NCBI GenBank assembly: GCA_000091205.1 | Contig: AP006499.2 | Length of the DNA stretch: 64,000 bases | Direction: 5' to 3' (one strand) | From: Cyanidioschyzon merolae | Taxonomy: Eukaryota | Part shown: positions 844-55,439 of the stretch, one piece after another | Layout of the letters: every line of letters starts with the position of its first letter | Position numbering within the stretch: position 1 is the first letter of the stretch | Program-made: the position numbers and the translations under genes | The notes under the pieces: model-generated | What the model was told of the DNA's origin: nothing | Database searches by the model: none | The model's input: only the letters and a program-made list of their open reading frames with translations

Positions 844-3800
844 CTATGCCGCGTGATGCGTCTGCGTGAGAAAAGCGCCCATTCGACTCCAACTCGCGTA
901 CTTTGGCCAAAAACGCCTCCCGTGTCTTTTGCTCTTACGATGTTTCGAGGCACCGCTTGTTGCATCGTCTGGCGATGCTGTACCAGCCACGGGGGGTTCC
1001 AGTGACGAGCCCGTCTCTCGTTGGTGCACATTCGGGCCAGTTGCTGTGGCCTTGGTGGGCGCTGGTGACGTATCCGCTGTTCCCAGCGCGGACGAAAGCG
1101 TCTCCAGATGAACTGTCTCAGAGGATGCGTCGACACATGCAAAACGCATCATCTGACGTAACACGCGTGCACACAACACACTCAGCGTCTTGGAGGTAGC
1201 GATAGACCCCGACGATGACGAGCGCTCGCGACTAGCTCCCAGGAGAAGCTCCAGCAACGCCACTACCGTCGGAGCGATCCGCTGCAGCCGCTCCACATCC
1301 CCATGCATGCCGGCGAACTGCACGAGTTGCTCAAGCAGCTGAACGGCAGCAGTCTGGGCATCCGCGATCGATGCCTGCAGGTTTCGCATCGAAAAACAAA
1401 AAGGACCGCTCTCCTCGGCGTACGTCTGCATACGCTGCACCCAGTGGCTGCTCCAGCGGGCTCGTAAATACCACAACGCTGCGAAGACGCATGCGTCCAG
1501 ATAGTCCTGGGTGAAAGCGGCTTCTTCTGGACCGTGTACCGCGGTGAGCGCTGTAGCGATTGCCGTACTCACCGGGGCACTGAGCGCTCGAAAAACAGAC
1601 TGTGCATCAGTGCCAATGCCGCGGAAACCTGCCACCAGTTCGTTTCGGGCATGCTGCTCGAGCACAGCCAACACTAAGCGCAATGTTTCCAGGGCATAGA
1701 CGATGCGATCGATATCGGGACGGGTTATAAACTCCTGGTGATCGTTCAGGATCGGGTACGACTCACACAGCAGCAGGCCGAGTAGCGGCCCCAGGACCAG
1801 TTCAGGTGCCAGACGCACGGCGCTGCGTACGAAACGTTCAGCTTCAATCCGGCTCGCCGAGTTTTCACTGCGCAGCGCATCCAGAGCCAGAAAGAGACAA
1901 TTACTGGAAAGCGACTGGGCTAGCCTGAGTTCCCGTGCGAGGCAGAACGCTTGGCGAAAGATAGCCAAATGCTCGACAGGCGAGCCCCATTCACCTTTCA
2001 GGGCAGCGGCGATGTAAGCCTGACACTCCGTCGGATAGAATTCCTGTAGCGAGTACCAGAGCAGTGCTGCCTGACGTCCATACGGAAGCAGCGACGGATG
2101 CAGGAACAGCCAGCACTGCGGAATGAGAAGATCACGAAACTTCTCGATAGGCACAGACGCAAGCAAGTCCACGGATGCGGTGCACTGTTGAGAGGCGCTA
2201 TCCAGCAAGTCTAGGTAATGATCCAGGCCGAGCAACATAAGCGGGAGCGTTCGGCAAACCGCCAGCTGCACAGCATCCTCAAGTGCACTTGCCACCCGCG
2301 TCTGCAGTAGCACGACGGTATCGGCAGTATCATTCACCGTCATTTCCGAGGACGAGGTAGCCCGCGCCCCATTCGGTGCAGCGGAGACGCCAGCGCTCAC
2401 GTCAGAGCAGGCATCCTCGCCCTCGGCGAAAGCGCAGATGCTCAAGGCAAGCTGGACAAGCTCAGCAATGAGGTCACAGCCAGCACGCGCATCCTCGACG
2501 AGCCACGGCTCGCAAGCGAAACGATACGAGCGTAAGCGTTCGAGGCAGAAGCTGGCAGCTCCTTCGGGCAGATCCCCGTGTGTAAGGCGGTTTCGCTCCA
2601 GCCAGGGTCGCCAGATGCGTTTTTCTACTGTTTCCAAGAGGCGCAGCGCTTGCGTAAAGATGGATAACTTGGTCGCGGGATCAGAGTCACGGAGTGCTAT
2701 CCGAATGGCAGAGACAACTCTGGCTAGCACTGTAAAGTGATGCCGCCACTCCAGTGCAGGCAGCTGCGTTTCGGGGCAGCACGGGCCCTGCAGGCGAGCG
2801 CACAAGATCACTGCGTACCGACAGGTATCGAGCACCTGTCCCAGCATGGACAATGATGGTAGCCCCGCGTACGCTACCACAAAAAGGAGACATTCAAAGA
2901 GCACCCGCAGCGACCTGGGTGGTTCCAGTTGACTCTCCATTTGGTGAAGCTGGTGGTGAAGCATTCCCCAGACCTGATCCGGTCCGAGCAGCTGCAGTGC
3001 TTCCCGCAGAGAATGCTCCACGGCCGACCACATCTTGGCCAGTGCGGGTAGCGCAGCTGTCAAACCAGGGGCCTCAGCTGGCCGCAGTTCGCTTCGTGGC
3101 GCTCCTCCAGGCGGCAAACATCCATGGTGCGGCTCCCGCAACAGCCTCTGGATCGATGGATCCATCTCGATCGGTGCGAATGCCTCTGGTGCTTGCGTCA
3201 GCGGCAACGTCGACGACGACGACGACTGCTGCTGCTGCTGCTGCAGTAGCACCAATCGACCGAGTCGCCAGGTGGTGCTCACGAGAATCCGCTCCAGATG
3301 TTCGCGGAGGCACTGGCGCTGAGCGAGCTTGCGTAAGACTTGCGCGAGTGTCAGCGCAGCATCTGCTATCCAGAGCGGATCCTGGGTAAACGCTGCCGCA
3401 GACACCAGTGATGCCGTTTCACTCGCGCCGTCTGCTAGTGCATCTGAGGCAGCCTTTTTGGGCGCATGAGGACACGCACCTGTTGCAGCTGTTACCGCTG
3501 GCGTGGCGAGACTGACCGCTTTGGTACCCGTGAACACGCTCTGTTCGATGCCCCATGCCCCGATATCCTGCAGAATCTCCTCTACAACCGCTTGGAAAAG
3601 ATGTTCCGCTGGCTGATCTTCCATCCAGGCATAGAGACGCTTTCGCAGGGATGCATCCTCGCGGAGGACGACCAACAACGCCTGGGCTAGAAGCGTTTTC
3701 GATTCCACTTCTGTAAAGAGGATTGCAGTCTCCCTTACGCGCAGCAAGGGAATGTGCTCGAGGCGCACTGGTTGCAGCTTTTCGACCGGCTGGTGCTCCA

Positions 3801-8512: not shown

Positions 8513-10979
8513 CGCCGCCAACGTCGTTACCCGACGAAACAGTGGGAGCGCGAAACAGCCGAAACTGTGGAGCAGCACGCGAGCTCGTAGAAACAGCTTC
8601 TCCCACCGACTACCGGTATCCGAGACACTGCAAGCCGTTCCGCGGGCGTAGCAAGCCGGTACCCATACCTAGTCGCTGCAACAACTGAAGCTGCTCGCTC
8701 TGATACCAGATCCAGCAAAGGGATGACGTGTTGCACTGGGATGCCTCAAGCGCCCTATTCCCGACGCGGGTATCCATGCACCGGGGCTTGCTGCTGGAGC
8801 AAAAAGTCGTTTACAGACTATCATATCATAGAAGGCTCCAAAGAGAGCACCATCTCGCTTTATGATCTTTGACGGCAGTGAAGCTTTGCAACCAGCGGGG
8901 TGCAGTCCGCTCCGATTTGATGATTTTTTGCTGGTGGACAGAAAGTGTGAACCTCTTGCGCACTTGAGTATGGTCTCCTCGCGTTACATAGGCAGCCCGG
9001 TGTGAAACATGAGGTCCTGAACGGGCTCCCAAGCACTGTCACACTCGCCAATGGACACACTCGGCTTCCGAGGTACCGCGCATGCCTCACACTGGGCGAC
9101 ATCGAAACGTCGCCGAAAACGAACCCCTCGAGGAACGGTTTTTGGTACTCGCCCCAGAGTCGATGCATCCAGCTGGGCGTGCCGGGAGGCGCAACTGCAG
9201 CCGCAACCGCCAACGTCTATTGGAGGTCATCCTGAACCCGTTCACGGGAATCCACTGGACCATGCAAGGCCCGCGAGATGAAGCAGGTTCGGTGTATAAA
9301 CTGCGCGGTTCTAGGCGTTGAGGAGCGCTCGCGCCCAGTACCCAGGCACCCGAATGATTTTCCAACCTTCTACTCGGGCCTGTCACGAGCCCCGATGAAA
9401 TCTACGGTAAACTGGATGAATTGATGGCATCCTACGGCTGATGGCATTCGAGCCATAGCTCCATGTGGCCTTGGCGTCTCCGAGTCCGGGACTCGTAGAC
9501 GTGCCTCAGGGCGCTCTTTAGATGCGAATGATAGAAAGCATGTGCTTGCGCGTACACCTGTCGAGAACGGTCCTTTTCGGTTCGTGACTCTCGTTCAATA
9601 AAGGCCGCCGAATAAGAAGCGACATGCAAGCAGCCTCGTGCTCAACAGAGTTTCGGCCGCTGCTACAGCTACTGCTGCTGCTGCACCACGCGAACTTTGA
9701 GCATCGGTGTTTCGTGCACTACTGACGATGCTCTGCGTCTTCACTGCATAAGCCTTAACGACACTATCCATGCTGCTGTTTGAGCTAGGCCCCAGCATCT
9801 CCAAACACGAGCAGATGGGTAGGGGCGTCAAGCACACGTGCACAGCACACTCTCTCTCGAACGTAATTTCCAATGAGATGCCGCCCTTGGTGCTTTAAAC
9901 GAATGCTGCCACATTCCATTTTAAGAGTTATCGACTTGTCTTTCCCATTCGTCCCTCGCAGTGGTAGGATCGATGATGCATCTGACCACTTGATTTGATC
10001 GGAGATTCCAGAGGATCGTGGACAGCAGGCAGCGCGGCTCTCGGAATGCCTGTACGGATATAGTTCAAAGAATTCCATCAAGCCGAGCGAGGGGTAAACG
10101 AGGACCCATCGAGTGAGAGGGACCAAAGGCCGGTGAAAAAGAAACAGAAACTGACCACTAAATACCCATGACCCGATGACATTTTCCCCGCGTCTGTGGA
10201 AAGCGTTGCAAAGGGCGAAGTTTTCCGTTTTTTCGAAGGTTTACCGCCTAGGTGCAAGTTCCTGCGAGCTGAACGAGTCCACTGAGCAGTTGCTCTGTGC
10301 GGCTCGGCAGTGGCGAGGCCGTAGCAACACGTCCACAAAGCATTTATTCTAGGACTAGAAGTGGGTAGCGTTCATCCACGTGTCGTCATGGTCGCAGCGG
10401 TTTCCGAGTCTATCGCTTTGTGCTGCCGCATGTTGTAGGTCTGTCTGCAGAGCTTGCCGGCTCCCAGAATGATAATTAGCCGTGATTCCGTGTCAGGCGT
10501 AGGATTCTGCGAGCCGACGCCCTCAGCGGTGTGGCAGAGCCATTCTGTCTCCATGCAGCATCCGTACCAGCGGTATAAGCACCAGTGCGGGTACTCACAA
10601 TAATCACTCGGCGCATAGTAGAACGTACAAAATGACCCGTATATCCGAAAGAGAGTTTCCGTCATGGAACTTAAAGATAGCATGTATCATGATGGACGCT
10701 TTCCCGAATGCCATGATTCATCGCGCAACCTCAGATCCCTGCTCAGTGGACGAATTTTTTGTCATCGAAAAAAGGATTCGCAGATGCCGCTACGAGTTGC
10801 AGCCATTGCCAAGTACAGCCTCGAAAGGCATTGTGCAACTGAACCTAACAGCAGCTTCAGGACGTGTCTTTCTTAAAGACGAACGCTTCGGAATCCAGCA
10901 CGATTTTCGAACCCCATAACGCGTCTGCTTTCTGGGGTTATTAGGAGCTTGCGTTCGCCAGGTTGCGGTGCGTTTCGAC

Positions 10980-20841: not shown

Positions 20842-21054
20842 GTTTCAGGCTTGCTCGTGTGACCTGCTGGTGCACACCTAGCGTCGCGTTAACTCGTCCC
20901 TATGAGAGAAGCGCAAACAAACACTCAAAATTGAGACACGAAGCGACAGGGTGCCAGAAAGCTACGGAACACACCGCGGTTCGTGGAGCGTATCTCCGGG
21001 CGCGCTCGGGCGACACGCGGGGATACGCGACGGTCGTGCAAAATGAATATCCAC

Positions 21055-22420
21055 TCACAGACGCCTCGGGGTCTTTCTTTTTTTGACCAGCCCCCTGCTA
21101 TCGGTATCAGCTTCTCCTTGTAAACCTTGAGCCTGAGAGGTATTCCAATAAAGTTCGATGTCGTCAGCTCCTCAGGTCTCGTCTGCAGCACCGCACATTG
21201 TCTGATATTGATAGCAGCGTTAAAGTACTGCTGTACGAACTCCGCGCGCTTCGTACCGCTGCTTGATCTCACCGTGGCGGGGGTTCCTCGAACTCGTGCC
21301 TTTTGTTCCATTTGGCGCTTTGTCGGCTCTCTGTACTTCCGATCGGCGAAGCGCTCCGCTGGCTTAGCTCCGTTTGGACCGTTTGGAGAGGGCACCCCAG
21401 CTCATCCCTTAATTTTCTAAAATGAATACACTTGTTTATGCCGCTAGGTGAAGACCTTCCTGGAGCGAGAAGGACTTGGGGAAGAAAGACGACATATGTC
21501 TCCGTGGAACCATGTGGTAAACGCTTCAGTGCTTCGCCCGCTGGTGCCATCATTACGTTGCAAGATAGAAATTACTCTTTCGATCGGGTTGAGCCATGGA
21601 GGATACGTAGTAATGAAAAGCAGCTCTACTCCCCGGTAGAATCGGCAAAAACTCGATGGTTAGGGGAATGGTCAATGGCCATGTTCTGTAATTGAAGGTC
21701 GTCACCAGATGTCATGGGAAACGACTTCAGTGCTTCGAAGAAGTCGGGGCTGTTGTACGAGCCTTCGCTACGAGCGAAACGGATGCCGCCAAATGAATCC
21801 ATTGTAGCTAGAACAGATGATGATGTTGTCGTTGTCTTCAAGTTCGATTGCACATACAACGTGCTCCCTTTTCTGCGAGTACCCATATACGCTCCCGAGG
21901 TTGCGTCCGAAGGAAATCTCATCGACTGAAAAAACAAACCGATATCCTTTGCCTCAAAGTAATCGCGACGTTCCAGGAACGCTGTCGATTCGATTTCGTT
22001 GCCAGAGAGCCGTGACTGAAATCCGACTTGTTTACGAACTGTATCCCAGTGAATTCAGGGTCACACGAAGCAGCTGTTCAGAAACAGAGATGGCCATTGC
22101 GGCTGCAAGCTTCCCTTTTGCCGTCCGTAAGGTGCTCAACGGGTCGTTTTGTACCATGGACCGCAAGCAGTCTTTGAGCATATCGGTTTCCGGCACCGAG
22201 CGCATGTACTTCTTCGTCTCAGTGTTACTCAACCATCAGCGTCCCGTTGTATACTTGACCTCAATGCGGAATGCAGTCCTCCATGCACTGTTCAGTCAAG
22301 AATCTAGGTCGTCCACGATTTATACGGATACATTGCATCGTGATTTCGACTTTCTCCTACACACTGCCAAAAAAAGCATTCGATTACACGCAGCTGGAAT
22401 GGAACAAAACTGAGCTGAAG
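21055..22420. repeat. Dispersed repeat, copy A (~1.35 kb), homologous to 44820-46140 at ~70-75% nt identity, same orientation
   Basis: The two copies share long collinear blocks. Examples are ttccttgtaaacc...tctgatattgat(a/g)gcagc, gcgaagcgctccgctg(g/c)ctta, ggagcgagaaggacttg and catcgactga(a/g)aa. Only fragmented ORFs remain on both strands. Confidence 0.8.
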
Positions 22421-40777: not shown

Positions 40778-41757
40778 TCGCCATCGAACTCGCTCACAGT
40801 CCGATGGCATAGCTTCGACGATATGCGTCAGCGTCTCGCGGATGCATTACTGCAACCGGTATTCAAGGAACAGACATCATTTTCTGGACGGTTGCATCCC
40901 CGCACTGTTTTTCGCGTTGCAGCTCTGGTGTCAGGAACTGAAGCTTGATAGAGCTACAGGCGCTCGAGTAGAACGTGTACCTCGGGTGCGCGTTGCGGCG
41001 CTGGAAGCGCGCCCTCTGGTCCACGTAGGTCAGGAGCACGCCGTGCGGATGCGTTGCATCAGCACCACGCAGCCTAGCTGTCTATGCAAGGTGCCGCTAA
41101 TGCGTTCTTCGCTCGAGGCGGCTCGTGCAAAAACGCTCCACAGGCTTCTATGAAGGGCCTGCTCGTCCCTGACGCACTGCCGCTGAGACCGATGCAACAG
41201 TGTTTCGGGCCCATTGCGCAAGCCACCGTCATTCGACTCTGTTGCAGCAAGGGACCGGTGTTCCCGCTGGCGAACCAGATTACGGACATGTGTTTCGTGC
41301 CCTATGCACGCTATCTGTTCTAAACGGGCAAAGAACCGTGGCCGTGTACGCTCGTGTTTGGTCAGGTCCTGCCACAATCCGGAGCTGGGCGGATACACCA
41401 GACCACCTGGCGTCTCCGTGCAAACCCCGATTCTTGGTGAAGCGGTTGTGTTCCCCTGTGCAGCGTTTCATGACCAGGAGCACGCCAACAGGTTCAACAC
41501 CAATCCAGCGGGAACAGGGACTAGGACGAAGCCCCACACAGGTTTTTGCCCCGTTATGGGATCAGAAAATCTACCCAAAAAGAAACCCTGGACTGCGGGC
41601 ATGCTGCTCAGTCAGCGGGGTAGACAACTCAAAGGATCACGTGTTGCTTTCGACATGCCCGCGTCACCGGATCCTGGTGGCCACCGAGCAAGCCCTGCAC
41701 TGGTACCTCCTCGTCTCCATAGAGAAGCGCAACATCCATCGGTATTAAAGTCGAGTA

Positions 41758-42100
41758 ACCTGTGAGAAACCTGAATCTATATACATCCATCAGTAATCAA
41801 GTCGGATACCCTGTGAGAAACCTGAATCTATATACATCCATCAGTAATCAAGTCGGATACCCTGTGAGAAACCTGAATCTATATACATCCATCAGTAATC
41901 AAGTCGGATACCCTGTGAGAAACCTGAATCTATATACATCCATCAGTAATCAAGTCGGGTACCCTGTGAGAGACCTGAATCTATATACATCCATCAGTAA
42001 TCAAGTCGGATACCCTGTGAGAAACCTGAATCTATATACATCCATCAGTAATCAAGTCGGATACCCTGTGAGAGACCTGAATCTATATACATCTATTGAA
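41758..42100. repeat. 51-bp tandem repeat, ~6.5 copies, each with a TATATACAT core
   Basis: The unit ccctgtgagaaacctgaatctatatacatccatcagtaatcaagtcggata repeats nearly perfectly, with minor variants gagaaacc/gagagacc and cggata/cgggta. The array ends ~25 bp before the first ATG (42124) of the downstream + strand gene. It appears in the ORF track as the artefactual ORF 41762-42133. Confidence 0.95.
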
Positions 42101-42207
42101 CACTTGTCAACAATCGAACCGGAATGCGCGTAGCCCTACGCTACACCACTGAGGCGCACAGACATTTCACGAACATTGTGGTGCGGTGCAGGCGACTCGA
42201 GTACGCT

Positions 42208-43227
42208 ATGGCAGCGACGGGAATCGTTCGTGTTCTTGTAACGCGCCAAATTCAGGAGGAAGCGCTTGAATATGTACGGAAGCAAGTTCCGAACGTCGAG
42301 CTTCAGGTGCACCCGGACGAACACCAGTCACCAGCGCGTTCGGAGCTTGAAGCGTGGCTGGAGCGCGGCGTGGACGGCCTCGTCTGCGTGATCGGAGACG
42401 TTATCGATGAGGCTCTGCTGACACACGACACGCAGGGTCGTTTACGTGTCGTGTCTACCATGTCTGTTGGGTATAACCACATCGACGTGGAGTCGTGTCG
42501 GCAACGAGGTATCGCTGTGGGGCATACACCAGACGTGCTCACGGAAACGACGGCGGACTTGGCTGTAGGTCTGGCGATCGCGACAGCACGGCGTTTCCGA
42601 GAAGCGCTTCAGGCCGTTGAACAGCCTGGTGGCTGGAAATCTTCCTGGTCGCCAACGTGGATGTGCGGAACCGATGTGCACGGGGCGACTGTGGGCATCA
42701 TAGGTCTGGGGCGCATCGGCGTCGCCGTTGCGCGGCGGTTGCACCACGGCTTCGGCTGCCGCATCCTATATCATGGTACTAGGGAGAAACCTGTGGTTGC
42801 AGCTGAGATTGGGCAGGCGCGTTTTTGTGCCGACCTGGGCGAGCTGCTCGCTGAGTCTGACTTTGTGATCCCACTCTGCCCGCTGACGCAAAAGACCCGT
42901 AACCTCATCAACGCTAGCAGTTTACGGCTCATGAAAAAATCCGCCTTTTTGATTAACGTTTCACGAGGTGAGATTGTCGACCAAGACGCCGTCTGTGACG
43001 CGCTAGAAGCCGAGGCGCTGGCTGGATACGGTACCGATGTAACGGTTCCAGAACCGATTCCCACTGATCACCGCTTGCTCAAGACCAGGGGTGTAACTGT
43101 GCTTCCACATATCGGCAGCGCTACCCTGCAGACTCGCTTGGCGATGGCTCGTCTCTGTGTCGAGAATCTGGTGGCCGGTGTCAAAGGAGACCCCTTGCCG
43201 CACCCCGTGCCGCTGCATGCCGAATAG
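42208..43227 (+). CDS. D-isomer-specific 2-hydroxyacid dehydrogenase (glyoxylate/hydroxypyruvate reductase-like)
   Basis: The NAD-binding site is GATVGIIGLGRIGVAVARRL. The catalytic-domain layout fits, and the C-terminus reads HIGSATLQTRLAMARLCVENLVAGVKGDPLP. The start was set at ATG 42208 (MAATGIVRVLVTRQ, a typical GRHPR N-terminus). An alternative ATG at 42124 would add a 28-aa Arg-rich extension. Confidence 0.85.
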   Translation: MAATGIVRVLVTRQIQEEALEYVRKQVPNVELQVHPDEHQSPARSELEAWLERGVDGLVCVIGDVIDEALLTHDTQGRLRVVSTMSVGYNHIDVESCRQRGIAVGHTPDVLTETTADLAVGLAIATARRFREALQAVEQPGGWKSSWSPTWMCGTDVHGATVGIIGLGRIGVAVARRLHHGFGCRILYHGTREKPVVAAEIGQARFCADLGELLAESDFVIPLCPLTQKTRNLINASSLRLMKKSAFLINVSRGEIVDQDAVCDALEAEALAGYGTDVTVPEPIPTDHRLLKTRGVTVLPHIGSATLQTRLAMARLCVENLVAGVKGDPLPHPVPLHAE

Positions 43228-44154: not shown

Positions 44155-44819
44155 TCGATTTTCTCTGCCTGACAGGGGTGTTTACGTGGACGATAGATCC
44201 TAGACTGCAGAACGGATATTGGCATTCGGTAAGAAGTCTTTCATGATACATGCTATGTGCAGCTTCCATGATCAATGCTTCCTCACGGATGTACGGGTTG
44301 TTTTGTACGGTCTATTATGCGCCGAGTGCCGGTCGAGCGTAGCAGCAGAAGCGCGTATTCCGCTATTTTTGTGATGCAGCTTGGATACAGAACAGTTTTG
44401 CGATACTGCTGAGGGCGTCGGCGCGAGGTATGGTTCATTCAGGACGGAATCCGGACTGTTCATTAATCTGGGAGTTTGCAATGCGGGCATACGCATAAAC
44501 TGCCTCTGGCAGCGCGAGGCGACATGCACGAAGCCAACTGCGACCAGAGCGACGTCCAGAAGCAGCCTACACGCTCCGAATTCCAGCACGAACCGCGTTG
44601 TGGACCAGCAGCTGAGGTCTCTTCACAGCGCTAGGCACTGGGGCGAGCATGAAGCACCAGCCCGGCAGACTCGCCTTCTGCCGAGAAGGAAAACTTTCGA
44701 CAATACGGAAAACTTTTCCCCCTTTCGCCGCTTACCGTAGAGGCGGAAGCGATCGTTTTCTCGTCGCTCTTTAGTGGCTAGTTTCGGTTCATGCTATCCA
44801 CGTTAAAGTGATACCCGCT

Positions 44820-46140
44820 CCAAGACGCCTCCCAGCCTTTTTCTACACGCCGCCTGCGCTCGGCTTCAGTTTTTCCTTGTAAACCTCAAACCTGAAAGGT
44901 TGCCCCATGAAGTTGGATCGTCTCAGCTCCTTAGATCTCGTCTTCTGCACCACACATTTTCTGATATTGATGGCAGCACTGGAGTCTCGGTTCACGAACT
45001 CCATGCGTTCCGTGCCTCTAATTGACCTTACTAGTGCAGGGACTCCTCGAGCTCGTGCCCTATGTACCATTTGCTGCTTTGGCAGCGCTCCGTACTTTTC
45101 TATCGCCGAAGCGCTCCGCTGCCTTATCCCCAGGTCGACCTTCTGAAGAGTGCGTTCCAGCTCATCCCCTGATTTTTTGAAAACGAACGCACTTGTTTAT
45201 TCCATTCGGGGAGGACCTGCCTGGAGCGAGAAGGACTTGCGCAAGAAAGACGACATGTGCCTCGGTGTCACCGTGTGCTGAACGCTTCAGCCATTCTCCC
45301 AGTCGAGCCATCACTACATTTCACGATAGAAATCACGCATTGGATGCAGTTGAACTATGAAGTGTACGGAGGATTCAAAAGCAGCTCTACCCTGATAGAA
45401 TCGGCAAAATTCGAAAGCAACTGGAATGGTGGATTGCTTCAGTGTCCAATAGAGTAACGTCGCCAGGCGTCGGGGAAATTGTCTCTAAAATTTCAGCGAA
45501 CTGGGTGCTGGTGTATGAGTCTTCTCGACAAGCGAAACTGAGGCCGTAAACTGAATCCACTAGGGCTGGAACAGATGATGGTGTCGTCGTCCGCTTCGCG
45601 ATCGATAGCACATGCAACGGGGTCCATCTTCTCGAATACCCATATATGCTCCAATCGTTTCATCCGAAGGAAGCCTCATCGACTGAGAAAAGAAACTGAA
45701 GTTCCTATTCTTCGTACTAGACGCGACGTTCCCGGAATTCCGTTGTTGCGATTTCGGGGGAAGATTGCCGTGCATGAAACCAGACTCTTTTTTCGCGACC
45801 GCGTCCCAGCGACTTTTTTCCAGGACCACACGAACCAGCTGTTGAGGAATGGAGACGTCCATGGTCGCTACGATCGTCGCTTTTTGTTCCCATATGGTAA
45901 TCAACAGATCGTTTTCTACCAGGGACTGGAAGCACGCTCTTACACTATCTGTATCTTGCGTGGAGCGCAAATTCTTGTCTCGTTCAGGGTTCCAGAACCA
46001 TTTTGTAACCATCGCATGACTGACCTGACGAGGAATGCACTCCTCGTTGCACTGTCCAGTAAAGAATACATCCTACAACCAACTCATCTTCGATCTATAC
46101 AGTACATTGCATCGTGAATTTGATCTCCTGCCATACACCA
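44820..46140. repeat. Dispersed repeat, copy B, homologous to 21055-22420; minus strand carries a RuvC-III-like D..AAINI motif
   Basis: See copy A. The minus-strand ORF 44843-45070 encodes EFVNRDSSAAINIRK. Its copy-A counterpart at 20925-21395 encodes EFVQQYFNAAINIRQ. No intact long ORF remains. Confidence 0.8.
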
Positions 46141-47894
46141 CAGAGGAAGTCGACCAAAATTGGATTGAAAGACTGTGATCCGACACGCAATCTAGTCCTG
46201 TATATCCAGACTGATGACGAGAACGAGCCCCGTCTGGATACGCCAAGTCTTCTTGTAGCAAGGTTCTAGTTATGACCTATTCAGATGAAAGCAGGACGCC
46301 TCGCCTGATCCAGAGCGCAGTGCGCGCTAATGACACTTGTTGGTTGTCGCGATCGGCAAGCGGCACCAGCTATCGCTGGTATTCGCGAGCACTGCCCATG
46401 TGTTTGAGCTGGCGAGGAGATGCTGGGCTCGGACGTACTGGTACCCCGAAGCGAACAACAGTTGGAACCCGATCGAGCACCATCTTTTGCACCAGTGCCC
46501 TAACAGGTACAAGGTCGAGTCTCAGATGCGTCTACCGTGAACGCACAAGTCGCAGACCGTGCTTATCTACGCGAACTCAGATCCTGCAGCACGAAATAGC
46601 TGGTATCGCGTCAATTTCAATCGAGTGTGCATACCCTAGCTCAAACTCTGATGCAGGCTGCTTGTCAAACAAATGCATCAATGAGACTCGCGCGACGAAG
46701 CGCTCGTCATGCGGCTAGAGGGCGCTGCCAAGACCTGCGTTGCCGATGACGCAACCGCGACGATCGAAGGTCACCAAAAACTCGCGCTGCCTCGCTCCGA
46801 CTGACAAGCTGCCGCTTCGCACGAATCTCGTCGACAGCATCATCTCCTCGAACATTCCATACATTCGCTACGTTCGGTGCAAAGCTCGGAAAGAGCGCAT
46901 CCCCCGACACGGAGCTCGTGCGCGAACAGCCGAGGCCATGTACCAGACGACGCCAGTCGATACTGGGACCGGAGCACAACGCGCTAGATGTGCGCTCCAA
47001 CGTGTCCATGTGCACGTTTCTCTTCATGATGCCAATCGAGGCTGAGCATCCGAGCGGATTTCAGGTTTACAAAGAGCAGACGCACCGATTCATATCGACG
47101 TGCATCGAAGAATGCGCTGTGCACCAGACAAACGAGAAAAAGTCCGACGCGCCCAAAGAAGCATCCACAGAATACCGGTTGACCGGAAAAACGCGCGTCT
47201 TGGGGCATATCGCCAGGAGACCATCGGTTGTTTCTGTTATCCAGAGCCGCTGAAACCGCAGATCGCAAATCAAAGGCCGTAGTTTTTCAGGCGGCTGACC
47301 GCAGCGTCGCCTGATCCCGTGTTTCCCAGCACAGGGCACGCAGCATGCGATATAGCGGGAACGAAGGGATGTTTTCGCAGGCTTTCAGTAACTCGTGTGC
47401 CCTGTCTAGCGAATCTCAGACAAATCGGGGAATGTGCTTCATGGAATAGTACAAGCACCAGGCGAAACGGCAGTAATCGGGAATATCCTACGCTTCCGAC
47501 TGAGCGTAGCCCTATTGAATCGAAAACACAGGTGGAGCGTTTCGCTTGGCGTCGCAGTGCAGCGCCCGTTTCATGCAAGAACGTCAGTGTCGGGACGGCT
47601 CGTACTCGTCCTAATAGGACACGTACTCGTCCTGGAGAAAGCTCAGGAATGCACCTGGTATCTCGATATAGAGAAGTTTCGTCTGTGGTTACGGGGAAAC
47701 CGCATCATGAAATCGGAATCAACGGAAAACCTCATAGCTGGTTTCAGGTTCCGATATGCCCGAAACGCCGCGTTTGTCGTATGCCCCGAAGAGCGAGCAG
47801 CAACAGATGCATACAGTTACCGCACGGACTAGAGCGAAAGCTCGATCACCGTCGATTGCACGCTGCATGCGACTACCTCTATGACGACTACCAT

Positions 47895-53651: not shown

Positions 53652-53930
53652 GGTTCCCCCGTGCACGCCACCCAGTCTGTTCTGTAGCCTCGAGCGCTGT
53701 GAACGCAGGCGTCAAAGTCGCTCCAGTACCGACGACGACGACGCTACTGCGCTATCGACAGTGTGCACCGGCCAGGGGCACGGCCGACGTCGTCGACGCA
53801 CCTTGCCATCTGGACATAATTGAATATTCATGAACATTTCTGAAAAAATAGACAAAGATCCATGCATGCCCCTATTCGCGCCCTGCGCACCGCAGCGCGT
53901 CGCCACTGCGACAGGGACAGCGTCACCGCG

Positions 53931-54172
53931 ATGCATCATGACCAATGGTGTCCTTGAATGTCCCTATTCTCGCCCGCGTGCTGCGCATCAGATGCACCAT
54001 GACCAATGGTGTCCTTGAATGTCCCTATTCTCGCCCGCGTGCTGCGCATCAGATGCATCATGACCAATGGTGTCCTTGAATGTCCCTATTCTCGCCCGCG
54101 TGCTGCGCATCAGATGCACCATGACCAATGATGTCCTTGAATGTCCCTATTCTCGCCCGCGTGCCGCGTCCG
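53931..54172. repeat. 61-bp tandem repeat x4 (plus a degenerate 5th copy from ~53860), each unit with a CCAAT core
   Basis: The unit catgaccaatggtgtccttgaatgtccctattctcgcccgcgtgctgcgcatcagatgca(c/t) starts at 53941 and again at 54002, 54063 and 54124. The array lies between the divergent uL15 (start 53651) and RPL4 (start 54291) genes. Confidence 0.95.
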
Positions 54173-54290
54173 TCGCCACCGGCATCCGCGCAAGGCGCTC
54201 GCGTTTCCCCCAAATGCATACTGCATCGTCTGCAAACGACGTTACAGCAGTGCTTCGTGTGCAGTGACAAGGGCCCGCGTTGCCGTAGCC

Positions 54291-55439
54291 ATGGCGTACG
54301 CATCGAGGCCGCTTGTTTCTGTGATATCGACAAAGACAGGTGAGTCTATTGGCGAGCAAGTCAAGTTGCCACAAGTGTTTCTGGCTCCGATTCGCCCGGA
54401 TGTGGTGCAGATCGTGCACACCGGCGTGGCGAAGAACGCCCGTCAGCCGTACGGTGTGAGCCGGATGGCCGGCGAGTGGGCCACTGCGCACTCCTGGGGA
54501 ACAGGTAGGGCAGTCTCCCGAGCGCCTCGTGTGCACGGAGGCGGTACGCATCGATCGGGTCAAGTGAGCGGTGCGAACTTTGCACGAGGGGCTCGCATGT
54601 TCGCTCCGACTCGTATCTGGCGACGTTGGCACGTCAAAGTCAGCCGCGGCCAGCGTCGCTATGCAGTCGCCTCGGCGCTGGCGGCCAGTGCCCTACCCGC
54701 CCTGGTCATGTCGCGTGGCCATCGCATCGACTCTGTCCCTGAACTGCCGCTGGTGCTGAGTGAGGACTCCGAGTCCCTGCGCCGTACCAAGGACGCCGTC
54801 GCTCTCCTGAAAGCGATTGGTGCATATGAGGATGTCGAGCACGCAGCGAAATCGAAGAATCAACGGGCCGGTCGCGGTAAAATGCGCAATAGGCGGTACA
54901 CTATGCGTCGGGGTCCTCTCATTATCTACGCGAATAGCGAGAAAGATCCCAAGTCGGGTGCACCAGACAACCTCAGTCGCGCTTTCCGTAATTTGCCTGG
55001 CGTCGAGTGCTGTCATGTGGAGCGCTTGAATCTCCTCCAGTTGGCACCAGGAGGTCATCTCGGCAGGTTCTGCATATTCACGAAGCAGGCCTTCGAGCGC
55101 CTTGATGAAATTTACGCCACCGGTAAGAGCGGCTTCAAGTTCCCTCGGGCAGTGATGACGCAGGCGGATCTCTCGCGTATCATCAACTCGGACGAGGTTC
55201 AGAGTGCGCTGCGTCCGATCCGACGGGTGCCGAGGTTGCCACGGTTGAAGCGCAACGCCTTGCGTAATCGCCGGATGATGCGCTTACTCAATCCTGCCTA
55301 TGATGCTTTCATACGCAAGATGAGCGAGCGTGTACCGGACGCATCACGGCGCTTGCCAGCGTCAGAGAGAGCTCGCGTCCGAGCGATTGGAAAGCGATAC
55401 ATTCGCCAGTTGCTGGACACAAATCCAACCGAAGTTTAA
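54291..55439 (+). CDS. RPL4: 60S ribosomal protein L4 (uL4, cytosolic)
   Basis: RPLVSVISTKTGESIGEQVKLPQVF...GVSRMAGEWATAHSWGTGRAVSRAPRVHGGGTHRSGQVSGANFARGARMFAPTRIWRRWH is typical of eukaryotic L4/L1e. The start was set at ATG 54291 (MAYASRPLVSV). The ORF-track start at 54141 lies inside the tandem repeat. Confidence 0.9.
   Translation: MAYASRPLVSVISTKTGESIGEQVKLPQVFLAPIRPDVVQIVHTGVAKNARQPYGVSRMAGEWATAHSWGTGRAVSRAPRVHGGGTHRSGQVSGANFARGARMFAPTRIWRRWHVKVSRGQRRYAVASALAASALPALVMSRGHRIDSVPELPLVLSEDSESLRRTKDAVALLKAIGAYEDVEHAAKSKNQRAGRGKMRNRRYTMRRGPLIIYANSEKDPKSGAPDNLSRAFRNLPGVECCHVERLNLLQLAPGGHLGRFCIFTKQAFERLDEIYATGKSGFKFPRAVMTQADLSRIINSDEVQSALRPIRRVPRLPRLKRNALRNRRMMRLLNPAYDAFIRKMSERVPDASRRLPASERARVRAIGKRYIRQLLDTNPTEV

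Follow-up and report, generated by a model that had tools for sequence, protein, structure and literature searches.

The stretch of Cyanidioschyzon merolae DNA analysed here (64,000 nucleotides (nt) of contig AP006499.2, assembly GCA_000091205.1; hereafter the window) contains two copies, A and B, of a direct repeat that joins a transposase pseudogene to the 3' end of a Fanzor1 gene. The copies are about 75% identical to each other. Their first bounds, about 21060-22400 and 44820-46140, were widened by a multiple alignment to which further paralogues had been added (see the table). Fanzor1 proteins are TnpB-like, RNA-guided nucleases with a RuvC fold. On the minus strand, both copies share one layout: a full-length DD34E transposase is followed by a spacer of about 40 nt and then by the terminal ~350 nt of the CMe-1A Fanzor1 gene. 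CMe-1A is a C. merolae element with a 3169-bp consensus, in which an open reading frame (ORF) at nt 906-3110 encodes a Fanzor1 of 734 amino acids (CMe-1). Its copies number about 150 and agree with the consensus at roughly 80% identity; the element has no terminal inverted repeats (TIRs), no transposase listed and an unknown classification (Bao & Jurka 2013, Mob DNA 4:12, PMC3627910).

The repeat family is about 1.4 kb long and has at least 10 paralogues, with pairwise identities of about 68-71% and with frameshifts and stop codons. Both window copies are decayed pseudogenes, ordinary transposon fossils. Hot-spring metagenome contigs contain the same two loci at 99.4-99.6% identity and were also the source of more paralogues (loci numbered L below). 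The proteins of three long window ORFs agree at every residue with BAM82172.1, BAM82173.1 and BAM82165.1 of C. merolae 10D, encoded on a 1.23-Mb chromosome. Two sequences are taken here as unbiased evidence, namely stitched copy A and a family consensus formed by the majority of 10 paralogues. Earlier hand-made A/B hybrid peptides had been biased by eye to known motifs and are not relied on.

About 1 kb of the repeat is a DDE transposase gene of the DD34E Tc1/mariner/IS630 type, on the same minus strand as the Fanzor1 tail. The raw minus-strand frames gave a weak match only to the Pfam family DDE_3 (expectation value E 0.0054). Copy A, corrected only for frameshifts, reached 31.1 bits (E 2.4e-7; gathering cut-off 28.6), while stitched copy B stayed sub-threshold (E 0.015). 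The consensus, a protein of about 305 amino acids, scored 69 bits (E 5.3e-19) and reads FSVDETSF ... LLLDNVAFHHS ... PPYAPWFNPIE at its catalytic residues, the second D and the E being 34 residues apart. Much of this can still be seen in the window: FSVDE(I/A)SFG...YGYS is present in both copies, GDVTLLDTEAIHHS in copy B and YPPWLNPIERV in copy A, and the putative helix-turn-helix (HTH) that reads IVATMDVSIPQQLVRVVLEKS in copy B reads LAAAMAISVSEQLLRVTLNSLGY in copy A. Copy B has about five frameshifts plus stop codons and has lost the catalytic E (FNCIQ); copy A has about two frameshifts and several stop codons and has lost the second D.

The relatives of this transposase are numerous. The consensus has 225 database homologues of about 295 amino acids, 40-50% identical, and these cover 97-99% of it, which places the end of the transposase before the AAINI tail described below. 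Many of the full-length homologues carry PF01498 or PF13592; the N-terminus of the consensus itself matched HTH_Tnp_Tc3_2 (E 0.0039) and HTH_33 (E 0.012), both below cut-off. Alignment with the Mariner-like transposase of PUl-1, a composite element taken up again below, gave 28% identity in the DDE core (E 7e-14). A word-indexed protein search with stitched copy A as query gave no matches.

Features of the two repeat copies and of one neighbouring element in the window. The bounds of the two whole copies come from the multiple alignment and are approximate; HTH1 and HTH2 are the putative first and second helix-turn-helix
Feature	Position	Strand	Counterpart	Identity and E	Remarks
Copy A, ~1.4-kb repeat	21041..22420	-	Metagenome locus L005	99.6%	
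Copy A, DDE_3 transposase pseudogene	21428..22333	-			FSVDEISF, YPPWLNPIE; second D lost
Copy A, Fanzor1 3' remnant	21058..21405	-	CMe-1A nt 2737-3083	67.6%, E 1.5e-27 (blastn)	
Copy B, ~1.4-kb repeat	44804..46176	-	Metagenome loci L014-L016	99.4%	blastn against 10 paralogous loci
Copy B, DD34E DDE_3 transposase pseudogene	45197..46107	-			HTH1, HTH2 IVATMDVSIPQQLVRVVLEKS, FSVDEASF (first D), LLDTEAIHHS (second D)
Copy B, spacer	45166..45196	-	CMe-1A nt 868-895		After the transposase stop; AAGTGCGTTCGTTTTCAAAAAAT matches the Fanzor1 5' untranslated region next to the start codon
Copy B, Fanzor1 (CMe-1) 3' remnant	44823..45165	-	CMe-1A nt 2737-3082	71.8%, E 6e-45 (blastn)	
Copy B, RuvC-III R-D-S-S-A-A-I-N-I	44963..44989	-	CMe-1 NRDFNAAINI; RuvC-III region of Parasitella 9cf0		Catalytic Asp kept
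TE-N2_CMe-like element (the 5' 635 bp of CMe-1A)	44180..44790	+	CMe-1A nt 13-633	73%, E 8e-101 (blastn)	

The second module came to notice through a short peptide. In copy B, the minus-strand ORF 44843..45070 has a translation that starts MVHRARARGVPALVRSIRGTERMEFVNRDSSAAINIRKCVVQ and contains RMEFVNRDSSAAINIRKCVVQ; at the homologous position copy A encodes EFVQQYFNAAINIRQCAVL, within the longer stretch KRAEFVQQYFNAAINIRQCAVL. With its preceding residue the copy B motif reads NRDSSAAINI (44989 to 44963) and that of the family consensus NRDFNAAINI, whereas in copy A it has degenerated to QQYFNAAINI (21204-21218), with loss of the RuvC-III Asp. A six-frame translation of the window holds AAINI twice, both times in the two copies (0.02 expected from mononucleotide shuffles), and RD..AA.NI once (0.0 expected from shuffles). 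The decisive argument against a chance origin is homology: in a tblastn search with the published CMe-1 Fanzor1 protein, residues 609 to about 730 (609-726 in copy B) matched the tails at 53% identity (E 9e-29 in copy B and 4e-24 in copy A).

The preliminary description of this locus had read D-x-x-AAINI as the third RuvC motif (RuvC-III) of a TnpB- or Fanzor-like nuclease, lying near the C-terminus of the nuclease and near one end of the element. Both points were borne out by the homology to CMe-1 and by a profile link to solved Fanzor1 structures. Accordingly, NRDSSAAINI is a true RuvC-III motif of a Fanzor/TnpB-type nuclease. The same account had noted that similar peptides are conserved on the opposite strand too; this is because the copies decay neutrally, so that conservation at the DNA level appears in all frames.

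The Fanzor1 part retained in the window comprises the last ~118 codons, including RuvC-III; its 10-copy consensus is RMEFVNRDFNAAINIRRC, and the copy B remnant has one in-frame stop near its end. Some metagenome loci match only the last ~100 residues of the stitched query, and in these the tail forms the C-terminal end of a longer ORF. This ORF carries FVVGADPGNTNIITIA, VTIPIDEFRTSYT and RMEFVNRDFNAAINIRRC, and we identified it as the CMe-1 Fanzor1 of CMe-1A. CMe-1 has both of the other catalytic motifs, RuvC-I (GADPGNTN) and RuvC-II (VDEFRTSY), and homology in the window begins at nt 2737, just past RuvC-II. The rest of CMe-1, beyond residues 609-730, was absent from the window in DNA and protein comparison, that is, RuvC-I, RuvC-II and roughly the first 610 codons are missing. 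The window remnants hold RuvC-III only and cannot be nucleases. A separate candidate, VVFLPQVLLAPGRSS upstream of the junction as a homologue of Fanzor VVAYGAGRW, was rejected; it has no DNA-level support and is the C-terminus of the transposase in another frame.

The link from CMe-1 to characterized nucleases depends on profile breadth. Single CMe-1-type sequences, or a narrow family profile, gave no TnpB/Fanzor match against Pfam and the PDB. An exhaustive profile search found 1469 relatives, and a broad profile built from 57 of these, two of which are CMe-1 family proteins, matched the solved Fanzor1 chains 9cf0 (E 2.3e-20), 8gkh (E 5.5e-12) and 9cer (E 6e-6). These alignments span both VDEFRT (RuvC-II) and NRDxNAAxNI (RuvC-III). 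Between the two motifs lie the zinc-finger cysteines, of which two of four are present in the CMe-1 consensus, one in copy A and none in copy B; at this site relatives read RGLLWCxST and CMe-1 reads RGLLALVSTT. An AlphaFold2 model of the protein P0011, made from a shallow family alignment, was unusable (pLDDT 38, the predicted local distance difference test).

How the two modules came together can be read at the junction. After the transposase stop the family consensus continues as AAAGTGCGTTCATTTTCAAAAAA, and its nt 1005-1032 are identical to CMe-1A nt 868-895 at 26 of 28 positions. From CMe-1A nt 895, directly upstream of the ATG at nt 906, the consensus then jumps to nt 2737. In the alignment of all copies this one junction is common to all except the sister copy L030/L031. 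That copy keeps CMe-1A nt 875-1011 (E 2e-14), which comprise the spacer, the ATG and some 35 codons, and then jumps to about nt 2841; its deletion is independent of that of the main family. The repeat is not colinear with the full 3169-bp CMe-1A consensus, since nt 868-895 and 2737-3088 are the only parts of it that are represented. Elsewhere the two genes occur as intact neighbours. For each of the six transposase homologues that were looked up, a full-length CMe-1-like Fanzor1 lies 30-225 nt further downstream on that strand, with 30-45% identity and an E of 1e-77 or lower. The spacing is 30-43 nt in the intact composites L039, L040, L042 and L043, and the L036 contig (3384 bp) is bounded by 34-nt TIRs.

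Taken together, the spacer that is a Fanzor 5' untranslated region, the start codon kept in L030/L031 and the intact pairs elsewhere lead us to conclude that the repeat is probably an internal-deletion derivative of a composite mariner–Fanzor1 transposon. The ancestor would have been a cut-and-paste element of the kind known from Pythium (PUl-1) and a Phaeocystis virus (PGv-1). It would have had TIRs, a DD34E Tc1/mariner/IS630-type transposase of ~300 amino acids, a spacer of ~40 nt and a Fanzor1 of ~734 amino acids on the same strand. An internal deletion, from ~10 nt upstream of the Fanzor start to codon ~610 (CMe-1A nt ~896-2736), would then have removed RuvC-I and RuvC-II. It would have left the transposase, the spacer, the last ~118 Fanzor codons with RuvC-III (RDxNAAINI) and a short 3' terminus. 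Since this derivative still encoded a transposase, it may have been mobilized by it and amplified to at least 10 copies, after which the copies would have decayed neutrally.

Several observations weigh against this account. An intact transposase followed by a full-length Fanzor1 was not recovered from C. merolae, and the ancestor is reconstructed from two deletion derivatives and from relatives in other organisms. TIRs and TA target-site duplications could not be convincingly demonstrated for the C. merolae family in searches of the window copies and the consensus. The two ends of the consensus have in common just a short motif of the TGTT(C/T)CA type, which the TIRs of L036 and L043 contain as well. 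No Pfam TnpB/OrfB model, of the kind proposed as a check at the outset, reached significance on any copy, nor did one on intact CMe-1; the best score for the zinc ribbon PF07282 (E 0.94) fell on a hand-made A/B hybrid peptide, covered the last 11 profile positions only, and had no equivalent on the real copies. Finally, the last ~55 nt of the 1.4-kb family, its 3' terminus, are unlike the 3' terminus of CMe-1A, and in locus L034 the family junction is combined with a 3' end of the CMe-1A type, from which it follows that recombination among elements also occurred.

The last two observations, with the 3' termini of the two families diverging beyond CMe-1A nt ~3090 and L034 a hybrid of family junction and CMe-1A 3' end, are what favours an independent capture. 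A stand-alone mariner-like element would have gained the 3' part of the CMe-1A Fanzor by recombination or template switching, and the two genes would never have formed one composite in this genome. We consider this unlikely. The segment between transposase stop and junction is the Fanzor 5' untranslated region (CMe-1A 868-895), in the right order and with the spacing of intact composites, and in L030/L031 the transposase, spacer, Fanzor ATG and N-terminal codons are contiguous. Moreover, both modules have diverged to a similar degree from composites elsewhere (about 45% identity for the transposase and about 40-45% for the Fanzor).

A different possibility concerns not the origin of the tail but the reason for its retention. 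The Fanzor 3' segment could have been kept as an omega RNA (ωRNA) scaffold or a cis-acting end, serving mobility or Fanzor-guided homing in trans from CMe-1A copies. In characterized Fanzor1 loci the 3' inverted repeat is the source of the ωRNA transcript, which may reach into the C-terminal codons (Saito et al. 2023, PMC10432273), and the 3' end of the Fanzor gene is kept in both independent deletion derivatives. On the other hand, cut-and-paste internal deletions must keep both ends, so this retention is expected without selection, and the copies, by now pseudogenes, diverge at rates that look neutral. Nor was the adjacent ωRNA-like structure that had been anticipated detected: Rfam gave no match for one, and the 3' ~200 nt folded no more stably than dinucleotide-shuffled sequence (z +0.95 and +0.67 for the two copies in the window and +0.51 for the family consensus), within the limit that covariation cannot be seen in dead copies. 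For the CMe-1A consensus the 3' end gave a folding z of -2.0. We regard selective retention as improbable.

Hardly tenable at all, and in effect refuted, is the notion that the whole repeat is one decayed Fanzor/TnpB gene with a degenerate RuvC-II upstream of the genuine RuvC-III at its end, since upstream of the junction (45165 in copy B, 21405 in copy A) neither DNA nor protein resembles CMe-1, the region is a Pfam-significant DDE_3 transposase with its full-length homologues, and the two peptides first offered as degenerate RuvC-II (QQLVRVVLEKS in copy B and VTLNSL in copy A, both indeed found on the minus strand) fall in the putative second HTH of that transposase.

The initial idea of a decayed Fanzor/TnpB-type transposon thus needs to be divided. 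The repeat is a decayed transposon with a Fanzor1 remnant, but that remnant is confined to the last ~118 Fanzor codons and the other ~1 kb is a DDE transposase. A consensus encoding such a transposase had been named as grounds for abandoning the motif; the consensus does encode one over most of the element, on the minus strand, but as the element is a chimera this leaves the reading of the motif intact. We see no present function for either copy, given the frameshifts and stops in both transposases, the Asp lost from copy A and the missing RuvC-I and RuvC-II.

Set against known systems, the closest comparison is CMe-1A itself. It lies in the same genome, both window tails are homologous to its nt 2737-3088 (including RuvC-III NRDFNAAINI), and the decay is comparable, at about 70-80% identity to the consensus. 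In contrast to CMe-1A, the window copies have neither the TE-N2_CMe 5' region nor Fanzor codons 1-610, their 3' terminus is not that of CMe-1A, and they have a DDE transposase gene instead. PUl-1 and PUl-2 of Pythium ultimum and PGv-1 of Phaeocystis globosa virus are composite Mariner–Fanzor1 transposons (Bao & Jurka 2013, PMC3627910). They resemble the repeat in having an IS630/mariner-like DDE transposase and then Fanzor1, in the same order and on the same strand, a layout shared by the metagenomic relatives L036-L043 (with TIRs seen in L036), which come from SRR32481250, ERZ27257101, JGI 3300007063 and other data sets. The window copies differ from these composites as internal-deletion pseudogenes with the C-terminal ~118 Fanzor codons only and no demonstrable TIRs or TA duplications. 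With the solved Fanzor1 proteins (Parasitella parasitica 9cf0, Spizellomyces punctatus 8gkh, Guillardia theta 9cer) and bacterial TnpB, the source family of the tail shares GxDPG, VDEFRT and NRDxNAAxNI; it departs from them in the incomplete zinc finger of the CMe-1 consensus, and the window remnants in their single RuvC motif.

A Fanzor family in the C. merolae genome is already published, and the window copies are known kinds of element. The chimeric family of transposase and Fanzor tail, and the CMe-1A origin that it implies, are absent from Bao & Jurka 2013 (PMC3627910) and its supplements. The 1.4-kb family supplies a missing link from CMe-1A to the DD34E mariner-like transposase lineage, because the 5' untranslated region is kept, the start codon is kept in L030/L031 and the lineage is regularly paired with CMe-1-like Fanzor1 elsewhere. 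This is a small addition, of use for C. merolae repeat annotation and as one more Fanzor1 passenger in Tc1/mariner elements. A bolder proposal, which we consider unlikely, is that CMe-1A, so far 'unclassified' and TIR-less, descends from a Tc1/mariner-type composite and that the tail kept by every derivative might be an ωRNA-coding or cis-acting end. If so, transposase-only derivatives would still be recognized by Fanzor1 in trans, and nature would offer an example of a DDE transposon that has an end in common with an RNA-guided nuclease.

Some further observations were made on these elements. The TE-N2_CMe-like element lies against copy B tail-to-tail and in opposite orientation, within about 15-30 nt of its 3' end. 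Copy A lacks a neighbour of this kind, which marks the element as a separate insertion and not part of the repeat. A second one lies in the window at 10138-10767 (minus strand), about 73% identical to the consensus. Sequence of the TE-N2 type was also seen inside the Fanzor tail of L008 (L008/L009, from about 3975 onward) and beside the 5' region of L018 (about 2042-2690). A TE-N2 neighbour is thus found in 3 of about 11 copies of the 1.4-kb family, which could reflect insertion preference or a clustering of transposable elements.

Among the metagenome loci, L034 (2443-2990) is a hybrid copy that runs from the final ~130 nt of the transposase through the family junction and the Fanzor tail to a 3' terminus of the CMe-1A type; this terminus has a hairpin (GCCGCCA...TGGCGGC) and then a T-rich run. 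L021 has two Fanzor 3' tails, at 1937-2263 (-) and 2472-2797 (+), inverted and about 200 nt apart, which may be head-to-head truncated elements or a foldback. In P0002, P0005, P0007, P0011 and L022 (2150-2400), an acidic tandem repeat of ~25 amino acids (..VVDA.KHEEKKEA....QKVQDN..) precedes RuvC-I; its number varies and it expands within the coding region. Precomputed annotation assigns PF26935 (DUF8286) to CMe-1-like Fanzor1 proteins (P0001 and others, and the downstream ORFs of L039/L040), although our local Pfam copy gave no such match; DUF8286 appears to be an unrecognized Fanzor1 domain family. In L042 (ENA ERZ27292626, a 25-kb contig), the transposase→Fanzor1 pair lies among genes for a GIY-YIG nuclease, a collar/Gp10-like protein, eIF4E, an NAD-dependent DNA ligase and a methyltransferase. 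This gene set is typical of giant viruses and agrees with a viral spread of composites.

Elsewhere in the window there are two tandem repeats. One, at 41681-42147, has a period of 51 nt and about 9 units that are about 95% identical, and lies just upstream of the ORF 42124-43227. The other, at 53869-54168, has a period of 61 nt and about 4-5 units that are 98% identical, and overlaps the start of the ORF 54141-55439.

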